Position numbers and translations under genes: made by a program. A stretch of DNA of 43,778 nucleotides, filler included, from Catajapyx aquilonaris (Eukaryota), in the NCBI GenBank assembly GCA_000934665.2. It is 2 parts of 2 records of this genome, joined end to end, with 100 filler letters (N's around TTAATTAATTAA, not from the genome) between each part and the next. Parts side by side here need not be neighbours in the genome. Positions count along the whole stretch, not along the records: positions 21,944 to 43,778 come from KZ539445.1; 1 more part is not named here. One strand, 5' to 3'. Under the pieces are notes generated by a model. That model ran no database searches and was not told the origin of the DNA. It saw nothing but the letters and a program-made list of their open reading frames with translations. Every line of letters starts with the position of its first letter. Positions within the stretch are counted from its first letter, which is position 1. This document shows, piece after piece, positions 14,369 to 43,460 of the stretch.

Positions 14369-14979
14369 ACACTACATAAGAGGCGCAAACATTCGATTTC
14401 CGCGACTCTCTATTTGGGGCGTTGCCGAGGCTGGTGGCCATTTTGAAGTGTGGGCAACGCCAACGAGGTATAAATAGGGTACAGGCAAAAATAGGGTCCG
14501 TCTTCTTTGATTCGTCCGTGTTCTTGCCGTGTAGTTGCCATGGCCGCCAAAACCATCAAAGATGGCGGCGGACCATATTTTTGCCTGTACCCTATTTATA
14601 CCGCGATGGCGTTGCCCACACTTCAAAATGGCCGCCAAAACCATCAAAGATGGCGGACCATATTTTTGCCTGTACCCTATTTATACCGCGATGGCGTTGC
14701 CCACACTTCAAAATGGCCGCCAAAACCATCAAAGATGGCGGACCATATATTTGCCTGTACCCTATTTATACCGCGATGGCGTTGCCCACACTTCAAAATG
14801 GCCGCCAAAACCCTCAAAGATGGCGGACCATATTTTTGCCTGTACCCTATTTATACCGCGATGGCGTTGCCCACACTTTAAAATGGCCGCCAGCCTTGGC
14901 AACGGCCCCAAACAGAGAGATGCGAACATCAAAGGCGTCGACAGAAGTTTGCGCCTTAGTAGGCCTATTATGCTCCCTG
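14369..14979. mobile_element. MITE family A, copy 2, with an internal ~85-bp unit amplified 4 times
   Basis: Ends TATGCTCCCTG|GTCACAC and the left flank carries GTCACA. Units start at ATGGCCGCC near 14540, 14628, 14713 and 14798. Confidence 0.9.
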
Positions 14980-27000: not shown

Positions 27001-30000
27001 CCCTTCTATGATACAGTGGGGGAGGGTACACCTACAAACTGATACTTCCACCTTCCTCCCCCCCGCACCCCCTCCACCACCCCTGGCACACGACCCACCT
27101 ACTTATGCAGAAATCTACCTGCCAATTAATAATTCATGCCAGTCCCTGTTTAACTTCCCCTCCGCACAAGCCGCCCATTACCATTCACTCACCCTGTGAA
27201 TGAATAGACTTATCTGCCGCCCCATTGTTGCCCGCATTTAACCGGGTCGCATTAGCCGCCATAAATATCAGCCGCACAAAACAATGCTCATCATTGCATA
27301 TCGCAGTACAATGTACTGAATTGCTGCAAATTAGGCTGGGCACACCGAGGGTCAACTAGGGCCCTAGATGTGGTTCAACGTTACTAACAGTAAGTCGAGA
27401 TCCACCGCTGCCACGAGACCCTGCTCCAGTTCACGTCGATATACACAAAAAAAGCACTCAGGCATTCTAACAATATAGAGCTCGGTAATTCTCCATGCCC
27501 ACGACGTATATTGAATGTGGTGCCAATTTCCTACTTCCTATTGCCAATTTCCTATTTTTTCCTGGTCTGACAGCTATTCGAGTTATAAGCCACTCCCACC
27601 GCATTTCAGCAATCTGCACAGGGCCAAAAAAACATGCCGTCCAAAAGGCTTGCTCATCTGGGATCTGTCGATGAATCACTGTTGCAGTTATGGGAAGTGC
27701 CCAGCATCGCAACACCCACTCTTGCAATTCTACACGGCTATGTCACTGGTTGTTTCGTAATTCCCTACCTCCCACTTCTTTTGTCCCCGGTGTTGTCTCC
27801 TACTTTGTCCGACTTCCTACACTTTGCTACCGGCCATGGTATTGATTTGCAACCATTGGGAAGTCATTCACCTTCTCGATAAGTTTCATATTGACCATCT
27901 CATCTTAAATTAGTGCAATGTATTGCAAAGAGTGGGAGCAGGAGAAAGGAAACTGTACAGTCACCAGCAGGGTCAAAGTTCAGGGCTTGAGAATCCTTCT
28001 TTGGTGAATCACATGTCTGGCCACAGTCCACTTTGAACAGCTGATAAAACCGCACAATGACAGGTGGCTTTTTTTCCCCCCTTGCGGTTGACATTTCCCT
28101 GGAGCAGGAGTGTAATTAGGGAAAGAGTGTTTAATCATTCTCAATTGGGCCAATCGATTCAAATTGAGTTGGGGGATTTGCATTAATCTGCAGCAGGCAA
28201 CGGCAGTGGACAGACAGCGTCTGGAGTCGTTTTAATAATGGCATTAGTCGCGGCCGTGCTGTGCGATTACATTATCAGTCAACATAACCCACTGAAATTC
28301 TCACCTGAACTGACGGGCAAAGGTATATCAGCATGCTTTCAAAAACTCCCTTACGCAACTACGTCCTCATCCCAACTAATATTCCAGGCACTTTTAGAAC
28401 CTCATTTAACCCCAATCCCCACTCCTAACGAGAATAGCTCATCATGAAGCAAGAAATCAATGAGGATGCAACGGGTAGCACAAAATTAGTCTGACATGTC
28501 TTATCTCCCGGCATGCAGTAAAATGCTGGCTGCACAAAAGCCCAGGCTGCTGACAAATTTGCCAGGGAACAATCCATAACACGTTTTCTGCGATAAAGTT
28601 GCTTGAACATCACTGGAGGTCAGATGACATCAGACCTCTCCTAGTACTCCTATACTTCATGCCGTCTGCTTCCAAATTGATGGGCACGGTTAACATACCG
28701 CTATTTTCACGCTCGCAAATTACCTCTCATTTCGCACACATTAACTCAATTCCGCAACACTTGCAAACTACCTGATGCTCATAAATAAATCCATTACGAG
28801 TTGAACCGTCAGAATCCTCACAAAATATTCATGATGTCATAGTCATTGACTTAACTTCATCGGAAGTTCAACACTAACCTTGAAGTTTAACTACTCGAAT
28901 ATGAGTCATCTCTACCACTGACAAAGGTTTTTGCACAATTTTCCCATCACAATTATTATTAGATTTCACATTAATAATGTTAGTATTCAGTAAGGTCATA
29001 ATTGCATATTCGGTAGCACTTGCAATTTGTTAGGGGCAAAAATCCTAGAAGTCACTTCCCATGTTAACTTGTTAGTTGCAATCATGCCCGTTTTTAATGA
29101 GCCATCAAATAAGTACTGCCAGTTCCGAACATTGTTATTTCTGAGGACCAACCACCTGTTTAAGGGCACCATGGCAGTTTCAGTGCCATGTTTCCAACCC
29201 CAAACATGGGTACCATATAAAACCGAGCCAACCTAAAGTTGTGAAGCAGAAGTGTTGGACATTAATCAAGTTACTGCTAGCTACATTTTCCTAAGCGGCA
29301 GAAGAAGGAATCTTGCTTGCATGGCTTGCACTATCCATATCTTCAATTCGTTCTTCTGCCGCTTTGGAAAATGTGGCTAGCAGTGTGACTCGATTAATGT
29401 CCAACACTGTACAGCTGACAAAATGCAACCAGGTGTATCCCTCTCGGCCTAACAATTGTTCATTGTGTTGGCCTGTGTGCTCTCCACCAAATAATGGCGT
29501 TTGCCGAATACCATTGACTGACGTTACAAACATGTGTTTAATAATTTTGCTCACATTGTATTGGTTGAAATATAGGCCATCACTGCCTGTGGGTGCATGT
29601 TTCACCTACTGAATGTGGAAACATGAAACACAGTGTGACGATACGTCTACGACACTCGGCTAAGTTAACAAATTCTTAGCCTGTCACACCGAAACGACTT
29701 TCCACTGACAATGAGTGCAGTACAGTGTCAGACATTAATCGAGTCATACTGCTAGTGACCTTTTCTGAAGCGGCAGAAGCGGCTTGCACTGCTTGCCCTA
29801 TCCATATCGTCGATTCGTTCTTCTGCCGCTTCGGAAAATGTGTCGATCAGTATGACTCGATTAATGTCCAACACTGTACACCCCTTGCCAGGTGATTCAC
29901 TCAATTGAAAGTGACAGCCGGGGTGTATGTCGGTGCGGTATTCACTGGCATTGCCCGAATCACAAGGCGGAGTTCAGCCGTGCACACCGTGGCACCTGAC

Positions 30001-30436
30001 ATGCCCGCCATGTCACCAGTAACCCCGTGCACTGCTGTTATTCCCGGTGGGACTTGCCATGTTTGCAACTACGACCGCACTCGCTCCGTGGTCATACGCT
30101 GTCGACACTTCCAAACCTGGGTGCGGCGACATGTCTCTCTCTCTCTGGGGGTCCTGTCACACGCGCACCATCACTTGCCCCTGACTCGCCCCTGTGTGCC
30201 AGTGCCACACCCCCCTCTCCCTCCCCTCCCCTGTCACAATCCCCCCCTCCCTCCCCTCGGCCCTCCCTAGGCCTACTACTAGGCCTGACTCATCCCTCCT
30301 TCCCTCTCCCCGAATTCCTTTTTTTCCCGGCCGGCCGGCCATCATCGTCGGATCCGTGGCTGTGCAACGTACCATCGTATCTCTCTGCCTGCTCGGCCAG
30401 CTTGGCCTTGTAGACGTTGTCCTCCCGCTCCGACAT
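24015..30436 (-). CDS. YWHAE: 14-3-3 epsilon, 5 coding exons (30436-30373, 25969-25770, 25288-25182, 24514-24171 or -24144, 24073-24015), 257 or 266 aa
   Basis: [71 protein letters not shown] ... [23 protein letters not shown] ... [13 protein letters not shown]. All junctions are GT-AG and in phase. Confidence 0.97.
29251..29409. mobile_element. Tc1/mariner-type palindromic MITE in 14-3-3 intron 1
   Basis: AGTGTTGGACATTAATC...GATTAATGTCCAACACTG|TA. Confidence 0.75.
29723..29876. mobile_element. Tc1/mariner-type palindromic MITE, second copy
   Basis: TA|CAGTGTCAGACATTAATCGAGTCATACTG...CAGTATGACTCGATTAATGTCCAACACTG|TA. Confidence 0.8.
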
Positions 30437-30948
30437 GGCTTCGGATTACGACGGATTCTGATCGCAGGGCGGGCAGGGGGAAGCTCTTCTCTCTTTTGGG
30501 CCTCTCTACTCCTTCCCTCTGCTGCTCTCTGCTGCTGCCTCGGCCTCCGCTTCGATATCCAGTCGTAGGGGGGAGCAGGCGGCGCACAGAGAGGGCGGAT
30601 GGGATGGCGGCGGGTCGGGCAAGGGGGAGCTCTGCTGCGGGGGCTGGGAGGAGGAGGAGGGGAAGGAAGAGGGTTCGCCGGCCGCCTTTTTGGAATATAA
30701 NNNNNNNNNNNNNNNGGGCGGGGCGGACAAGGAAACTACATGATTCATTAACAGATGGCGCTGGTGTTCGGGACAAGGAGGGGTGGGGATCTGGCGGGAT
30801 CTGGCGGGAGGGGAGGAAACTACTTGGTCAGTGGCGGTTGAATTGATCAGTTGTAATTGGACGGATGGTAGGTCGTGCGGATAGTAGGGGTTTTCCAGTG
30901 AGGTCATGACGTTTCAAGGGTCGTATGACATCAAGGGCAGGGAGCATA

Positions 30949-31335
30949 TCTTCTTCTATATAAATAAAGCCGTTTGTGAGTCTGTCTGTCTGTCTACCTC
31001 TCTGTCTGTTTGTCTGCCTGCCAACCGTCATTTGCCTGCAATGTGCTCCACCCATGGACATAGCCAGGATTTAGGTTAGGGGGGGGGGNGGGGGGCAGCT
31101 GCCCTCCCTGGCTACGCCCATGGCTCCACCCCCAGGCCGGGAGAGGATGGGGGTTGACTACAGATGGCAGGCAAATGACGGTTGCAGTTATACAGGCGGG
31201 AGAGGTTGAAGGTGTTGGAGTAGCAGGACCACAGATGGCATTGGTGGCCGGACACACAGAAAGACAGACAGTTGACGGGGCAGATGTTTTCCCTTCATTC
31301 ATTTCTTCCCGGGAGACGCCGGGTGCCGCAGCTAG
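30949..31335 (+). mobile_element. Non-autonomous Helitron-like element in the left TIR
   Basis: Inserted between A and T. 5' TC...TATATAAATAAAG, a (CTGT)n tract, 3' hairpin CCCGGGAGACGCCGGG, then CTAG. No TSD. Confidence 0.8.
31053..31122. mobile_element. 70-bp hAT-like mini-element with 8-bp TSD GCTCCACC
   Basis: TIRs CATGGACATAGCCAGG / CCTGGCTACGCCCATG. The sister Helitron copy shows the empty site. Confidence 0.8.
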
Positions 31336-31672
31336 TACTACATAAGAGGCGCAAACTTCTGTCGGCGCCTTTGATGTTAGCGTTTCTCTGTTTGGGGCCG
31401 TTGCCAAGGCTGGCGGCCATTTTGAAGTGTGGGCAACGCCAACGAGGTATAAATAGGGCACAGGCAAAAATAGGGTCCGCCATCTTTGATGGTTTTGGCG
31501 GCCATGGCAACTACACAGCAAGAACACGCGCGAATCAAAGATGGCGAACCCTATTTTTGTATGTGCCCTATTTATACCCCGTTGGCGTTACCCACACTTC
31601 AAAATGGCCGCCAGCGTTGGCAACGGCCCAAACAGAAAGACGTGAAAATCGAATGTTTGCGCCTCTTATGTA

Positions 31673-32439
31673 CAGGGTGGGCGAAAAGTCCCAGGACACC
31701 TGGCTTTTTTTTGCCTGCAAAACAAATCTGTGCATGGAAAAAGTGTCGGGATGCTGGTGTAACATCTTCTGGACACTGACGGAACTGTTTGATGAGGGGA
31801 GACATCTGGGGACCCCCAACAACCCCCACAATAAATTAACAATGTTAACAGTGCGAGATGGCGGATACGAGCGGGTTCACTGTGGAGGAGAGACTTGTGG
31901 CTACTGTGTGGGTCCACGAGAGGCCTCATACGGGAAAGAACCTAACGCACATCATGCAGGATATCAGGGCTCGTTTTGGTAAGGCGCCACCGAGAAGAAG
32001 TAACTTGTTCAAGTGGGAGAAAAAAGCATTTATCAAGGGAAGTGTCTTTCACGCTTCCCGTCTTTCACATTTCACATGCTGAATGCTTTTTTCTACTACT
32101 TGAACAAGTTACTTCTTCTCAGTGGCGCCTTACCAAAACGAGCCCTGATATCCTGCATGATGTGTGTTAGGTTCTTTCCCGTATGAGACCTCTCGTGGAC
32201 CCACACAGTAGCCACAAGTCTCTTCTCCACAGTGAACCAGCTCGTATCCGCCATCTTGCACTGTTAACATTGTTAATTTATTGTGGGTGTTGTTGGGGGT
32301 CCTCAGATGTCTCCCCTCATCAAACAGTTCCGTCAGTGTCCAGAAGATGTGACACCAGCAAATCCGACACATTTTCCATGCGCAGATTTGTTTTGCAGGC
32401 ACAAAAAGCCAGGTGTCCTGGGACTTTTCGCCCACCCTG
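31673..32439. mobile_element. Fold-back Tc1/mariner derivative made of two opposed 5' ends, TA TSD
   Basis: TA|CAGGGTGGGCGAAAAGTCCCAGGACACC...GGTGTCCTGGGACTTTTCGCCCACCCTG|TA, with inverted arms of ~350 bp. Confidence 0.88.
31858..32046 (+). pseudogene. Truncated mariner-like transposase N-terminal helix-turn-helix (mirrored in the right arm)
   Basis: MADTSGFTVEERLVATVWVHER...IRARFGKAPPRRSNLFKWEKKAFIKGSV resembles the F...PP....I..W...F...GSV (DUF4817-like) transposase N-terminus. Confidence 0.7.
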
Positions 32440-32444
32440 TAGTA

Positions 32445-32729
32445 CTAGCTGCGGCACCCGGCGCCGTTGCCCGGGAAGAAATGAATGAAGGGAAAACACC
32501 TGCCAGTATAGACCCGTCAACTGTCTGTCTGTGGTCCTGCTACTCCACCTTCAACCTCTCCCGCCTGTATAACGGCAACCGTCATTTGCCTGCCATCTGT
32601 AGTCAACCCCCAACACCTCCATCCTCTCCCGGCCTGGGGGTGGAGCACAGATTGCAGGCAAATGACGGTTGGCAGGCGGACAGAGAGGCAGACAGACAGA
32701 CTCACAAACGACTTTATTTATATAGAAGA
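32445..32729 (-). mobile_element. Non-autonomous Helitron-like element in the right TIR (mirror copy)
   Basis: Reverse-complement homolog of 30949-31335, with 3' CCCGGGCAACGGCGCCGGGTGCCGCAGCTAG and the same A^T site. Confidence 0.8.
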
Positions 32730-32859
32730 TATGCTCCATGTCAAGGGGGTCGACAGATTTTGTCTTCTATCATTGGGGTTACGCGGAATAGACATAAGCT
32801 CGTACACGCTGTGTACGAGCTGATGTATATTCAGGCGTAGTAACCTCAATGCCTTATCC

Positions 32860-32980
32860 ACCATGCCATAAGGCGTCCGACTGCTAATCGGGAGGTCCTG
32901 GGTTCGAATCCCGGGGCCGACGATCCTGACCATGGTTTTCTGTGGTTTTCCACGGTCTTCCTAGGATAATTCCGGGGTCG
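32860..32980 (+). mobile_element. tRNA-derived SINE fragment
   Basis: ...AAGGCGTCCGACTGCTAATCGGGAGGTCCTGGGTTCGAATCCCGG (B box) followed by GGTTTTCTGTGGTTTTCC. The acceptor stem is absent. Confidence 0.6.
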
Positions 32981-33179
32981 CTTCCACAGCTGCTTCCTAT
33001 CCTTGGAGGTTGAAGAGGCAATACTGGGCCAACCTCCCTAATATCAATTATAAAGTAGGGACAAGATAACTCATGTGTTTTGGGAGGTGGCTTGTGTCCT
33101 TAGCAACTCTATAATTAGCCCCGCCCGCTATACCGGTCGACCAATCAGGATTCGATTTCAAAGGAGATGGGTGTTATGT

Positions 33180-33508
33180 CAGGGAGCATATACTATATAC
33201 ATGAGAGGCGCAAACATTCGATTTCCGCGTCTCTCTGTTTGGGGCGTTGCCAAGGCTGGCGGCCATCTTGAAGTGTGTGGAACGCCAACGAGGTATAAAT
33301 AGGGTACAGGCAAAAGTAGGGTCCCCATCTTTGATTCGCGCGTGTTCTTGCCGTGTAGTTGCCATGGCCGCCAAAACCATCAAAGATGGCGGACCCTATT
33401 TTTGCCTGTATCCTATTTATACCTCGTTGGTGTTCCCCACACTTCAAGATGGCCGCCAGCCTTGACAACGGCCCCAAACAGAGAGACGCGAACATCAAAG
33501 GCCCCCTG
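33180..33508. mobile_element. MITE family A, copy 5, with perfect 7-bp TSD GTTATGT
   Basis: GTTATGT|CAGGGAGCATA...CCCTG|GTTATGT. Confidence 0.92.
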
Positions 33509-33624
33509 GTTATGTTCTGAAACCTCAAGAATGAGATGAGTTTGTTTACACTTACACAATTGGTTACCAAGCAGGGGGGAAATAATTATATTCCCCACCA
33601 ATCATTCTAAATTCCATACAAAAC

Positions 33625-33884
33625 GGGAGGCATGGTGGTCTGGTGGTTACGCCACTGGCTACCAAAGCGGGAGGCTGGGGTTCAAATCCCGTCCCCGTCA
33701 CCGTCTGCTTGGCCGGGTCGTTTTCCGCTTTTCACCCTACATGCCAGGGCAGACTTGCACTCCCTACTCTGCCCAGGGCCAGGAGAAAAGGCCTGGTGTT
33801 TAAAGAATGTCAGAAATGATTACCGCACAGCACCCTCCCTTGGGAACCTCCAATTCCGCCCTATCGGGGTAAATATATTTTTTT
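33625..33884 (+). mobile_element. tRNA-derived SINE with target duplication
   Basis: A box TGGTCTGGTGG, B box GGTTCAAATCC, T-rich tail, TCCATACAAAA on both flanks. Confidence 0.75.
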
Positions 33885-34029
33885 AAATCCATACAAAAAA
33901 CTCAGCAAAGGGCGGGGCTAATTATGGCTGCCAAGGACAAGCCACGCCCAAAACGCATGAGTTATCTTGTCCCTTTGTATAGGTATGTCCAATTTTTAAA
34001 ATATATGCGTCATCCTTATCTCCGAAATA

Positions 34030-37387: not shown

Positions 37388-40300
37388 ATGACCACTGAGG
37401 GTGTGGTTGAAAAGGTCATGAGCAAACGAGTTTTGGCCTTTAGTGTGGATGCGCTTTTGGGTCATAGGAAGGTCACGAAAAGTGAGGATGAGTCTGATGG
37501 AGGGGTCAAGAAGGAGGTCACACTTGACCTTTGCTCGAGGGATCTTTGGCACAAGTTTTTTCAGTTGGGAACTGAAATGATCATCACTAAAGCAGGGAGG
37601 TAAGTTAATCATTGGGCGGTACCGGTTGTTGCGGTATGGCTTGAAATAGATTTTGCATCATCTTCTGTATGAGTGGTGTTAGGTCACCAGGTTTGAGACC
37701 ATCTGTGTCGTGAAGCTAATAATTAATGAGGATATCTGATAGATTAACTTGCACCGTGGGTAGAGTTTACAAAATTAGCCAACAATATTGCGCATTTTGT
37801 TGGTCAAAATTATTGTGTTAGTGTATATAGCGATGTTCCGTGAAAAATGGGGGTCCGACATTGCAAAGCTATGGGTCCTACTTAGGATAAGGGAATTGAT
37901 TTGACAACGTAGCACCGCAAACTTTTATTATCACTGTCCACTTTGGCTATCCCCCAATTGTCAAACGTTCAGAATTTTTTTTTGTATAAGGTTTTTGAGT
38001 TTTAAGAATTATTATAGAATAATTAGTTTAAACGAACCCATTTACACGGCACTCATCAATTGCAATTATTTCGCATCGTTTCTACTGTACCAAGGGTATA
38101 AAGAAGTTGCTTTTTTATCACTTAAGTCAGTCAATTTCACATGAATAGTGCATTGCCGTAGTGTGAATGTTTTTTATGTAAATAATAACCCATAAAAATA
38201 AATAAAAATCTATGGGAAGTCTGTCAGATTGCATACGATCCGATTTATCATTATCTTTAAAAAAAAATAACCAGTCGATGTTGCTGAACTAGTCGGCTTG
38301 TACGACCGGTACCGCCGATACACCAAAGGTCAAACATGCCCTATAATTATTAGGCATCCATTATGTAAATTCGAACTGCTAATAGCCTGCAGTAGTCTTC
38401 GCAGGTCCTGCCTCATTAACAGTTCCTTTCGGTAAGGCCGTAAAAGAAAGGAGGCAAAAGAAACTAACGTCTTAACACCTCTCAGAAAAACCGTCTCATA
38501 AATTACCAAGTTATTCTATGTTTTTGTTGTTGTTGTTGTTGTTTTTTTTGTAAAGGTGTTGACTGGTTCTAAGGGAGTTGGAGCCTTAATGACTTTTGCT
38601 TGGGTTCGTTTATTATTATATACGCACCTGGGAGGAGAAGTGGTCAAAAAAATTTGTGGGATGGACATGAGGCCATTTGCTATTAAGACAGGACACGACG
38701 GTACAGCCCACTTATTTCACGTTAAGGTGATGACTTCGTCGGAACTTGTTTGCACCTCTTGTACTTTGTTTTTTGAGTGTTTAAATGATGAATTGGGGTT
38801 TTTGTTTTTTTTTCAGGCGGATGTTTCCGACTTTGAAAGTGAGGGTTGGTGGACTGAACCCGAACCTGCATTATATCTTGTTCGTGGATGTCGTACCGCT
38901 TGATGACAAACGGTACCGGTATGTGTATCACAGGTAAGCATTTTTGACATTAGCATCAGTTTGAACAAATAGCTCAAAATAGCCAGATTTTCACTCAACA
39001 TACGGTATATTCCAACACTAGCAGGGAACCCACGGTCATTGATAAAATGCCCGAAATTTAAGAAAAAAATAAATTTTAAATTTTAAAAAATACGGTAACA
39101 AAAATAATCCCTCCGATGAGATATACCAAACTTCATTTGTTAAAAGCAAAAAATTCAACATTTTGGGTATTTAGGCTCAAAAAAGTGTAGTTTTCGAACT
39201 TTATTCTCAATCAGTGGGACGTACGAAGTCAGTTTGCAAAGTTTCAGAACTCCCAGTATAGTCTGAAAGTGGGTTAGGTCTGAGTCACAATTCCGCAGAT
39301 GAGATATACCAAGTTTCATTTTTTAAATCCTAAATTTCGGGCATTTAGACTCAAAAAAGTGCAGTTTTCGGAATTTTCCCGGAATCATCGGGACGTATGA
39401 GGTCAGTTTGCAAAGTTTCAGAACTCTCAGTAGTCTGAAAGTGGGTTAGGTCTGAGTCACAATTTCCGCAGATGAGATATACCAAGCTTCATTTTTTAAA
39501 TCCTAAATTTCGGGCAGTTAGACTCAAAAAGTGCAGTTTTCGGACTTTTCCCGGAATCATCGGGACGTAAGAAGTCAGTTAGCAAAGTTTCAGCACTTTC
39601 AGTAGTCTGAAGGTGGGTTAGGTCTGAGTCGAAATTTCCACAGATGACATACCAAGACTCATTTATTAAAATCCTAAATTTCGGGCAGTTAGACTCAAAA
39701 AGTGCAGTTTTCGGATTTTCCCCGGAATCATCGGGACGTAAGAGGCTAGTTTGCAAAGTTTCAGCACTTTCAGTAATCCGGAAGTGAGTTAGGTAGCCCG
39801 GACAAACATGACCAACAAATTTTCTGGTTTATATACCGTATGTAAGATGTCCAATCAACGAGCCTGAACCATAAACTATCTACATCATCTTCCATCTACT
39901 CCTCCCACCTTATCCTTCGCACCTAGTTTACACCACCATATTTTCTTCATCATTTATCAGGCATCTACAAGTTATTATTAGACACCCTCATAACTCTATA
40001 GGTATAGTTATTCTCAACTTAATTGACTTTTGAGCCAATTTCTTCCTGTTTCGTTTCTTTTTTTGTGTGTAAAAATTGGCATCCATCTATTCGTCGCTTT
40101 GGGGGATCAGTAAACATGTTGCAGTAAACACCACCTCTTGTTAATTACCCCCATTCAAAAAATCTGCCCCATAAGTCACCAAGAAGGCGTAAATAAGGCA
40201 ACAAAAACTGGCACATCCTTTATAATCAAAGGGACGTTTGAATAACCACATAACTCAACTCTTTTCCTCACATTTGGCCAAGAATGAATCCATCACTTGG

Positions 40301-41790
40301 AAGCACCCATTATGAGGAAAGAAAACCAAGCAACAATGCTGTAAAAATAAATTGCTAATCATCAAGGCGGTAAAAAGGGGACATTTTCTTGAGCACCTTT
40401 AAAAGAAGGGCATCAATCTTAAGAAGAAGATGTCGAGTTTTGCCAGACAGGGTTGGAAAGCCTTGAGGGTAATGTTTAGATTACTGGGGGAGAACGTCAA
40501 TTACAGGGGGACTTGATGAGATGTTATTAACTGCGTCCACCCCTCTTTTTACGGCTTCTTTTTTTAGTAAAGGTGCTAAGGAGTGATCTGTATGCGCGAA
40601 TGGGACGGTATTTGCAGTGTACACAACCGATGGAGGTCGTTGGCTGATCAAACATTGGGGATGGTAATGGGTAGTTGGGAACAAAATGGCGTTGACGCGT
40701 GGGTGGAGCGGGATGGGAAGACATAGCATTTGTTGACAACATGTTCCTCTTCAGCTCTCAGTGGATGGTGGCAGGTGCGGGTGATCCTCCGCTGTCTAAC
40801 AACACTTATGTCCATCCTGACTCACCCGCGCGAGGTCAGCTATGGATGGCTCAGGGGGTAGTGACTTTTGACCGTCTGAAGTTGACCAACAACAGAAAGC
40901 CGGTGGTTAGAGGTCAAGTGTCACTACACTCGATGCACAAGTACCTCCCCCGCATCCATATCCAGCAGACTGATGACCTGGACACTCCTCCAGAGTTGCA
41001 GATGGATGTGACCAGGTCACACTCCTTCAGCTTCCCTGAAACAGTCTTTACCACAGTCACGGCCTACCAGAACCAGCAGATCACCAGGCTTAAAATAGCC
41101 AGCAACCCTTTCGCCAAAGGGTTCAGGGAAGCCTCCAGAACCAGGTGTGTCAATTGTTGTACATTGTTGTAACTACGAATCGATGAAGTCATAAACGTCA
41201 TGTTGACGGGCATAAAGAGTCTCCCTTAATTCCTCCGAGGTTCAGACACCTTTCATCACGACAGTACCGACCATACCTCCCCCATTTCCAGACATGATTA
41301 TCCCATTAACCCTCCCCTCTTTATCCCCGCCCCCCCCCCCCTCTACTGTATTATGGGTTGAAATGGGCCGTGGGAATGACTCTATGTCCAACACACTGGA
41401 ACCGATGCGATGTGTAATTAGGACCCATTTCAAACTCCGGTCTTTAGATGGGGCAACAATTAATTTGTCACGCAACTGCACCTTTCGTTACTTATACACC
41501 GTATGTCCTATAGGGAGGTCAACAATGAAGAGTCCAGATGCAACTCGTCGATTATGTCGCCTATGTCACCTGTAGCACCATTGCCTCTACTGGGATGGCC
41601 CTGGGGTATGCCCCTACCGCCTGCCCCGGGGCCGCCCTCCCCATGGTCTGGTTTCTGGACAACAGAGCAGCAGTCACAGCAGCCCTGTTGCTGGACACTT
41701 CCGTTTCCCAAAGGTATGTGCCGTCCCAAGGAGAAACACCGTAACTTCAAAATTAGTAAGGGTGACAGTCGCGTGAATGCCCTGCACTAA
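37388..41790 (+). CDS. TBX15: T-box transcription factor of the Tbx15/18/22 class, 4 exons (37388-37599, 38817-38933, 40755-41144, 41514-41790), ~331 aa
   Basis: eh1 motif [96 protein letters not shown] and [15 protein letters not shown] are Tbx15/18/22-type residues rather than Tbx20-type. Confidence 0.88.
39018..39847 (-). mobile_element. Non-autonomous Helitron-like element carrying ~4 tandem ~172-183-bp repeats, in T-box intron 2
   Basis: Minus strand A|TCTTACATACGGTATATAAA ... CCGTGGGTTCCCTGCTAG|T. Repeat units start near 39115, 39298, 39471 and 39642. Confidence 0.7.
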
Positions 41791-42126: not shown

Positions 42127-43424
42127 TTATTTCCATCCTTCGCAGTAGTAGATGCTCTTGCCGGTACATACGGTGAACTTGGGTATGGCTCCTCTATGGT
42201 TGTTGTCAGCGGACAGAACGCAGGACTGCATACCTCGAAGGCACCCTAGTGTCTGAAACACACAGTAAGGTAAACACGGACAGCATGAGCAGGGAGCATA
42301 TACTACATAACAGGCGAAAACTTCTGTCGGCGCCTTTGATGTTCGCGTCTCTCTGTTTGGGGCCGTTGCCAAGGCTGGCGGCCATCTTGAAGTGTGGGGG
42401 ACGCCAACGAGGTATAAATAGAGTACAGGCAAAAATAGGGTCCGCCATCTTTGATGGTTTTGGCGGCCATCACGGCAAGAACACGCGCGAATCAAAGATG
42501 GCGGACTCTATTTTTGCCTCTACCCTATTTATACCTCGTTGGCGTTCCCCACACTTCAAGATGGCCGCCAGCCTTGGCAACGCCCCAAACAGAGAGACGC
42601 GAAAATGGAATGTTTGCGCCTCTTATGAATGCTCCCTGGTATGAGTGTCAACGCAGTACCATACCGTGAATGTCTTTCGGTCGATGATCCTCAGCAGGTT
42701 TCCTTCTGAACCACCCGCCATGATGCAATCCTTTCCTAGCCACTGGCAGCAATACAACTGTATAGAGAAACGGTACAGTCAGCATCGTTACCAACGTTAA
42801 GAGTCAAATCCGTACCAGCGAGCTGTATATCTCAGGTTTCACATCATACAACAGCTGTCCACTACCGTAGTCCCAAATTTCCAACGCGTTGTTCTTTCGG
42901 TACGAAGCGCTCAAGATCTGCAATGCAAGTACTGTACAGTCTGGAGCTGGACATGTCCCATTTGACTCACTTCGCGTCCGGAGAAGTCGATGTCCAGTCC
43001 TTCCCCGCAGACGTGTGGTCCGAATATCTTCCGGACAGCGTGACGCACCCGGAGGTCCCAGTACTGGACGGTGTTGTCCCAACCTCCGGACAACATCTGG
43101 CTGTTCCCGCTCGGGTGGAAGCACAGGCAGAACACACGGGATTGGTGTCCGTCCATCTGGTCCGGTGTCCCACTGAAGATGGTAAAATTGGACAGTCAGA
43201 TTATGAGGGACAACTCAGCTTCTAAGGACCAAACCTTGGTTGGAGACGAGAGACCTCCTGCAGAGTGTCAGGGTTGTACACGTTGAGTATCCCGTCGTCT
43301 CCACCGGTAACGAAGACATCTCCGTTCGGACTGAACGCCGAAGTGAAAGTCTGTCTGTTCTCCCTGAGGGACATCAGGCACTGACCAGTGGCCGGGTGCC
43401 AGCTCTTGATGAACCCACTGGCAT
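42127..43424 (-). CDS. WD40-repeat protein, 3' exons (43424-43235, 43172-42971, 42917-42816, 42757-42665, 42252-42127); 5' part beyond the window
   Basis: AFSPNGDVFVTGGDDGILNVYN; GHQSRVFCLCFHP...LSGGWDNTVQYWD; LEIWD. GT-AG junctions are in phase. Confidence 0.85.
42290..42638. mobile_element. MITE family A, copy 6, in the last WD40 intron
   Basis: GCATGAG|CAGGGAGCATA...ATGCTCCCTG|GTATGAG (6/7 TSD match). Confidence 0.9.
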
Positions 43425-43460
43425 CTGAAACATAATCAGCATCCCGTCACGTCGCGTGAC

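Follow-up and report, generated by a model that had tools for sequence, protein, structure and literature searches.

How can one short transposable element come to occupy both ends of another, at the same base and in mirror image? The question is raised by a locus in the genome assembly of Catajapyx aquilonaris (GCA_000934665.2), where a fold-back miniature inverted-repeat transposable element (MITE), here named family A, carries a Helitron-like element in each of its terminal inverted repeats (TIRs). The locus lies in a 43,778-bp stretch of DNA, hereafter the window, which joins parts of two records of the assembly (this part is from KZ539445.1), and all coordinates are those of the window. 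The DNA of the locus was read directly over 30700-33400, and the left arm was aligned to the reverse-complemented right arm. The explanation that we favour, to which we give about an even chance, is that a single Helitron integration into one terminal repeat was later copied into the other by repair or template switching.

The nested unit and its two families

The nested locus (30931-32747) contains a unit of 1,803 bp (30938-32740), bounded on both sides by the perfect 7-bp duplication TCAAGGG (30931-30937 and 32741-32747); by a rough estimate, a given 7-mer would recur at a given place by chance with a probability of about 6e-5. The unit is a family-A element, both terminal repeats of which are interrupted after their 11th base, between A and T (A^T); each holds there a copy of the same short Helitron-like element, and the two copies lie in mirror orientation. 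The outer family-A ends read CAGGGAGCATA on the left (30938-30948, plus strand) and CATGGAGCATA on the right after reverse complementation (32730-32740, minus strand; TATGCTCCATG on the plus strand, followed directly by the right copy of TCAAGGG), with one mismatch between them, and the left 11-mer also opens the family-A copies at 33180, 42290 and 43461. A homologous insert begins at the very next base on both sides, occupying 387 bp on the left (30949-31335, plus strand; 5′ TCTTCTTCTATATAAAT..., 3′ ...CCCGGGAGACGCCGGGTGCCGCAGCTAG) and 285 bp on the right (32445-32729, minus strand; 5′ TCTTCTATATAAAT..., 3′ ...CCCGGGCAACGGCGCCGGGTGCCGCAGCTAG). Both inserts end in ...CCGGGTGCCGCAGCTAG, after which the family-A repeat resumes with TACTAC(ATAAGAGGCGCAAAC). 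The 3′ 17-mer and the 5′ 26-mer of the insert each occurred twice in the window, both times here (chance expectation, 0.07 and 0.00, respectively), and self-BLAST of the window found no third Helitron copy. Reading and alignment of the arms confirmed what a preliminary description of this DNA had claimed, namely that the same Helitron-like element lies inverted at A^T in both TIRs, and the perfect 7-bp target-site duplication that it placed around the whole 1.8 kb was found as well.

Between the two inserts, the family-A body (31336-31672, plus strand) runs from the inner part of the left repeat, TACTACATAAGAGGCGCAAAC, through the fold-back arms to the inner part of the right repeat, where it meets the target TA of another element. 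This 767-bp fold-back (31673-32439), found in the right repeat only, has perfect terminal inverted repeats of 39 nt and TA target duplications (31671-31672 and 32440-32441), and a 3-bp remnant of the right family-A repeat (32442-32444, minus-strand TAC) lies between its TA and the 3′ end of the right Helitron-like copy. Its ends suggest a Tc1/mariner-like element, and its sole open reading frame (ORF; 63 codons, 31858-32046) matched no Pfam family, that of a DDE/D transposase included, at E values up to 0.1. The fold-back is a palindrome of ~385-bp halves that are inverted copies of one end (94.4% alike, 21 mismatches in 378), each half containing the start of the 63-codon ORF (ATG at 31858). 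Its central hairpin (31991-32122) matched MIR7486 in Rfam at 54.7 bits against the 67 needed, which we read as a hairpin look-alike. The left Helitron-like copy alone contains a 70-bp MITE (31053-31122) with imperfect 16-bp TIRs, one N in a run of G, and the perfect 8-bp duplication GCTCCACC (31045-31052 and 31123-31130); an 8-bp duplication is compatible with a hAT-like label and also fits the P superfamily. Both elements had been described as one-sided, and they are.

Public Logan contigs from four runs of one sample (X1-X4) were placed on 30717-33200 at 80% likeness. In X1, the word depth was ~9 in the unique flank, the bins of the Helitron arms summed to 5,800-47,000, and family A reached up to 235,000; summed contig depth is not a copy number and is used here only in the sense of "highly repeated", which the Helitron-like family and family A both are. 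The Tc1/mariner-like fold-back is multi-copy too, its bins summing to hundreds to thousands of contig depth.

Family A is a fold-back of ~335 bp without an ORF, and its arms in the focal copy (31392-31490 and 31534-31632) are complementary at 93%. Six other copies or part-copies were recognised in the window (2361, 14371-14956, 15356, 33180, 42290 and 43461), among which 14371-14956 has an internal tandem expansion, an inner arm segment standing there in several tandem repeats with a period of ~85 bp. None of the seven other recognisable family-A termini in the window bears an insert. Two of the seven read CAGGGAG(C/A)ATATACTACATAA, which is how the site occupied in the focal copy looks when empty, three are a short form without 5 bp (CAGGGAGCAT(A/T)CA(T/A)...), one is a longer variant and one is another variant. 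Empty sites also occur in the contigs, 36 of which in X1 run from ...CAGGGAGCATA straight into 31336; these, with the two window termini, bear out the earlier claim that other family-A copies have an uninterrupted A^T site. The 7-bp duplication fits both complete family-A copies, 7/7 in the focal copy and 6/7 (GCATGAG and GTATGAG) in 42290-42638, the only other two-ended copy. By analogy, a family with a 7-bp duplication recalls Galileo/1360 of the P superfamily, the flanks of Galileo being 7 bp in an excerpt of one account (PMC3573991); family A is not filed there.

Inside the family-A repeats the two sides are asymmetric, with GCAAAC-TTCTGTCGG on the left and GCAAAC-ATTCGATTT on the right, and this asymmetry is kept in the focal copy as in the others. 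Family-A ends further differ by 5 bp, the long form reading CAGGGAGCATA-TACTA-CATAAG and the short form CAGGGAGCATACATAAG, as seen at the termini 2703, 15691, 33180, 42290, 42638 and 43461; copy 42290-42638 has one of each. This difference sits exactly at the entry point of the Helitron-like and mariner-like elements, and the long form equals the short form with TA replaced by TA-TAC-TA. We take the TA-TAC-TA shape to resemble a Tc1/mariner excision footprint.

In excerpts of the HELIANO paper (PMC11417382), canonical Helitrons (HLE1) are marked by a 5′ TC, a hairpin, a 3′ CTRR and insertion between A and T without duplication. Both copies at our locus start with TC (TCT... directly after the host A) and end with CTAG, which matches the CTRR of canonical Helitrons. 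Comparison of the occupied site (GCATA-insert-TACTAC) with the empty site GCATATACTAC, present in the window and in the 36 X1 contigs, indicated insertion at A^T without a target-site duplication, the boundary of the insert being, as usual, uncertain by 1 bp. A CCCGG...CCGGG stem of 5 bp, or of 7 bp in the right arm if a bulge is allowed, ends 12 nt before the 3′ end of the insert, and its energies of -5.8 and -7.6 kcal/mol were no better than those of shuffled sequences (z about -1). Judged by the 5′ TC, the 3′ CTAG and the A^T insertion, the guest is a putative non-autonomous canonical-type (HLE1) Helitron-like element. Three other identities were rejected. An insert with a TA duplication would require an empty site GCATACTACATAAG, unlike either the long or the short end of family A; a Spy-type element, which also makes no duplication (as excerpted from PMC4122938), does not fit an insert that lacks terminal inverted repeats and whose site is not AAA^TTT; and a Helentron (HLE2) does not fit an insert at A^T, not T^T, that lacks short TIRs.

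The commonest 5′ end of the guest family in the contigs is TCTATATAAAT, and it lies in ordinary AT-rich sites, not in family-A ends: 37 X3 contigs cease to match before 30955, beyond which their sequence is AT-rich and varied (agreement 0.41). Relative to this commonest start, both focal copies have extra 5′ TCT, two units in the left arm and one in the right. The guest resembles the HLE1 elements, as excerpted in PMC11417382, in its 5′ TC, in its 3′ CTAG after a candidate short hairpin, in A-T insertion without duplication, in its many copies and in its AT-rich flanks, and it departs from them in a stem of only 5 bp that folds no better than shuffles and in the extra 5′ TCT of both copies. 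Four exact-pattern scans of metagenome_contigs and genome_contigs, for a 23-mer from the 3′ region of the Helitron and a 21-mer from family A, found 0 loci. In the flank, a 21-bp segment at 30751-30771 (ACAGATGGCGCTGGTGTTCGG) is 81% like the left-arm Helitron motif 31231-31251, and may be a decayed fragment of a related repeat or a chance likeness.

Kinship of the arms and order of insertion

With the 70-bp element taken out, pairwise alignment of the two arms gave 258 matches, 4 mismatches and 11 gap runs, and a MAFFT alignment gave 11 mismatches in 264 shared columns. The arms, which had been described as homologous, are so, with an identity of 95.8-98.5% in aligned columns; that first reading has to be corrected in that the arms also differ by ~10 insertions or deletions (indels) and both carry the extra 5′ TCT. 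Arm-to-arm divergence (1.5-4.2%; 4/262 to 11/264) is lower than the distance of the focal family-A copy from the in-window family-A consensus (18/334 different), which suggests that the pair of arms is younger than the host insertion, or was homogenised.

Whether the arms are mutual closest relatives was checked on two shared minority letters and the 5′ TCT, set against the majority of the contigs, a comparison with collapsed contigs and not a tree. Both arms have C at 30997 and at its partner 32688, where the letter of the window accounts for ~5% and ~12% of X1 depth (majority letter, 8,870 of 9,358 at 30997 and 22,801 of 25,789 at 32688). They also share A at 31040 and its partner 32653; at 32653, the other letter was found in 54/54 X1, 46/46 X2 and 54/54 X3 contigs and in nearly all X4 depth. 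Such shared states would hardly be expected in two random draws from the bulk of the family. Together with the 5′ TCT, the shared minority letters suggest that the arms are close kin and favour copying.

Each arm has changes of its own as well. Private to the left arm are 30996, 31010, 31314-31315, the 70-bp insert and a loss of 9 bp near 31277, most letters of which are kept in other copies (contig data at 32509/32511; joint 31281/32508). The right arm has 3 extra bases at 32462, which are left out in 31 X1 contigs (24,813 of 27,554 depth). The 70-bp element entered after the arms became two. The Tc1/mariner-like fold-back is probably also later than the copying of the arm, because otherwise just 5 bp of repeat would adjoin the Helitron 3′ end. 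The nesting has a readable order, as the preliminary description had proposed, with the one-sided inserts placed after the arms became two.

One integration or two

According to the explanation we favour, a fold-back MITE of ~350 bp (family A, with ~32-bp terminal repeats and a 7-bp duplication) would have seated itself ~500 bp upstream of a 14-3-3 gene, and a short non-autonomous canonical-type Helitron would have entered one of its terminal repeats in a single event, between A11 and T12. The insertion would then have been copied in mirror image into the opposite terminal repeat, in the course of DNA repair or replication with the first repeat as template; gap repair involving template switching or conversion of a short tract would be one route, and loop repair in a hairpin formed by the palindrome another. 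Such copying would be anchored by just 11 bp of repeat outside the insert and ~21 bp inside it, a length of homology that points to template switching or hairpin (panhandle) loop repair, not to classical gene conversion. The inverted ends would have lengthened from ~32 bp to ~320-420 bp, and the arms would have diverged later, when the 70-bp MITE entered the left Helitron copy and the Tc1/mariner-like fold-back entered the right repeat. We infer both the single integration, as opposed to two, and the mode of copying. Insertion at the same base, mirror orientation and one 7-bp duplication around the whole unit support a single insertion copied across, and the asymmetry kept inside GCAAAC indicates that the copied tract was short. 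The same retained asymmetry ruled out two other routes, regeneration of a whole arm by snap-back synthesis and a macro-transposon of two left ends. The Tc1/mariner-like fold-back, in which the two halves repeat one end in inverted orientation, would be another case at this locus of one end copied to the other.

Several points weigh against copying from a single integration. The kinship of the arms is read from two letters and a 3-bp unit. The contigs probably come from the same sample as the assembly, and so are not independent support; they are collapsed, and the 41 of 85 difference rows listed do not include 31040. No single-copy contig among the rows listed contains the right junction, although a hole in contigs proves nothing. 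For ordinary gene conversion, 11 bp of homology outside the insert is little. The same signal of kinship would be left by a daughter copy that moved between the arms, and the ~10 indels, many beside 4-11 substitutions, are also what two structural variants of a single family would show.

The last two points lead to the rival that survives best, two separate Helitron integrations, brought about by a sequence preference or by a daughter re-inserted a few hundred bases off on the opposite strand; we regard it as possible, if doubtful. Both families are highly repeated, with summed depths of thousands to tens of thousands against ~9 in the unique flank, and the two repeats offer the same sequence, with only three A^T sites per 32 bp, into which sequence-directed integration would place inserts in mirror orientation. 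With 0/7 of the other family-A termini in the window occupied, an empty site in 36 X1 contigs, and the 5′ flanks of other Helitron copies varied and AT-rich (agreement 0.41) instead of being family-A ends, there is no sign of targeting, and canonical Helitrons are described, in the excerpted text of PMC11417382, as requiring just an A-T site. By a rough estimate, a random double hit on a 350-bp element would be far too rare without more than 1000-fold targeting. The ~10 indels between the arms sit well with two integrations. An arm-to-arm daughter insertion would also account for the shared rare letters. Two copies taken at random from the bulk of the family would seldom have in common a letter not found in 54/54 contigs. 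The preliminary description had left the choice between TIR-to-TIR copying and targeting of the sequence; the shared minority letters and the TCT favour copying, and the unoccupied termini and the varied AT-rich flanks disfavour targeting.

The double structure may instead have been made elsewhere and have transposed here ready-made, as a family-A derivative with Helitron-extended ends. The perfect 7-bp duplication around the whole and the preserved outer 11-bp ends agree with this, as does the report that Galileo has fragments of other transposable elements in both ends "in transposing copies" (PMC4168063). The original family-A insertion explains the duplication equally well, however; a second junction CAGGGAGCATA-TCTTCT was not seen in the window, and the 5′ flank most frequent in the guest family is not that of a family-A end. 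We consider transposition as a ready-made unit unlikely, and it is in any case a variant of copying from one integration, which tells where the copying occurred and not how. A broader proposal strikes us as rather unlikely: that family-A transposase moves, or once moved, the whole Helitron-extended family-A element by way of its 11-bp tips, that its mirror copy came from a microhomology-anchored template switch, that such switches are a general source of long TIRs and fold-backs in this genome, and that the mariner-like fold-back is a second product. If the extended element does move as a unit, a rolling-circle element would spread by cut-and-paste ("hitch-hiking").

An inverted duplication wrongly built into a short-read scaffold is very unlikely. 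A 15-N gap lies 223 bp upstream and a single N lies in the left arm, every repeat here is high-copy, and no contig among those listed spans the whole unit, all of which would suit an artefact. Against it stand the ~10 indels, the 4-11 substitutions and the two one-sided nested inserts with duplications of their own, and the 7-bp flanks are direct, not inverted. The arm-specific differences had already been cited against an artefact, and the indels and one-sided inserts bear this argument out. The left junction, moreover, is present in single-copy contigs: records 1 and 9 (30717-30971, depth ~9, 0-1 differences) run from the flank through the duplication and the 11-bp end into the first 23 bp of the left Helitron.

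That the "Helitron" was original to a long-TIR element and was lost by deletion from the short family-A copies is hardly credible, for although family-A ends vary by 5 bp exactly here, the segment is a repeated family of its own with varied AT-rich flanks, TC...hairpin...CTAG ends and an A^T site without duplication, and identical clean deletions at both ends of thousands of copies are implausible.

Surroundings, precedents and significance

The first coding exon of a 14-3-3 epsilon-type gene lies at 30371-30436 on the minus strand, with its ATG at 30436 (a PDB sequence search matched it to residues 1-21 of 14-3-3 epsilon chains at E 3e-05); the 51-residue frame that holds it matched no Pfam family, and the gene was identified by the PDB search instead. 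The start codon is 502 bp from the unit, with the 15-N gap in between, in agreement with the ~500 bp described before. As far as any test here goes, this location is incidental. On the other side of the unit, 32865-32985 is the most repeated part of the stretch (summed contig depth up to ~650,000). Its start resembles a tRNA, with an Rfam tRNA match of 27.5 bits, just below the 29-bit threshold, and none by ARAGORN, and is probably a tRNA-derived short interspersed nuclear element. Over 30000-34000 as a whole, ARAGORN found no tRNA and the Rfam matches were all below threshold. Farther along the window, the open frames 38785-41172 (plus strand) and 42900-43450 (minus strand) are exon-like and may belong, by their motifs, to a T-box transcription factor (for example ...LKLTNN...SLHSMHKY...) and a WD-repeat protein.

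The copying of one inverted-repeat arm from the other has parallels in the repair of adenovirus inverted terminal repeats via a single-strand "panhandle" and in the correction of quasi-palindromes by template switching during replication. In these, as would be the case here, one arm templates the other and the change is mirrored; here, ~300 bp in a chromosomal transposon would be involved, in contrast to viral ends or changes of a few bases.

The closest precedent is Galileo. In Drosophila willistoni, other transposable elements that had inserted in one TIR of Galileo came to belong to both (Goncalves et al. 2014, PMC4168063), and for D. mojavensis an excerpt of PMC3573991 proposes that TIRs were extended when one was repaired off the other. 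As we propose for our locus, a transposable element that entered one TIR came to be present in both and made the repeat longer; in both cases the host element makes 7-bp duplications, and the proposed cause is repair, template switching or non-allelic recombination. The two cases differ in that our host is a non-coding fold-back MITE of 350 bp from an arthropod-type genome outside Drosophila, in that the guest is Helitron-like and not P, Mar or 1360, and in that the insert is 11 bp from the tip, so that the outer anchor is microhomology-sized. Spread to other sites is a feature of Galileo, and the present structure is known from one locus. A limited search of the open-access literature found no Helitron case of TIR extension, which is not proof of absence. 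The mechanism is not new, being in print for Galileo, and the value of the present case is modest for that reason; what is different here is the host, the guest and the position of the insert 11 bp from the tip.

Composites of this kind resemble new families with long TIRs, and annotation should allow for this. If one insertion was indeed copied, the locus would be a clean and datable example, from outside Drosophila, of short terminal repeats growing long. One class of transposon would have become part of the ends of another, and the copying may work with just 11 bp of outer homology, which would bear on the origin of fold-back and long-TIR elements.

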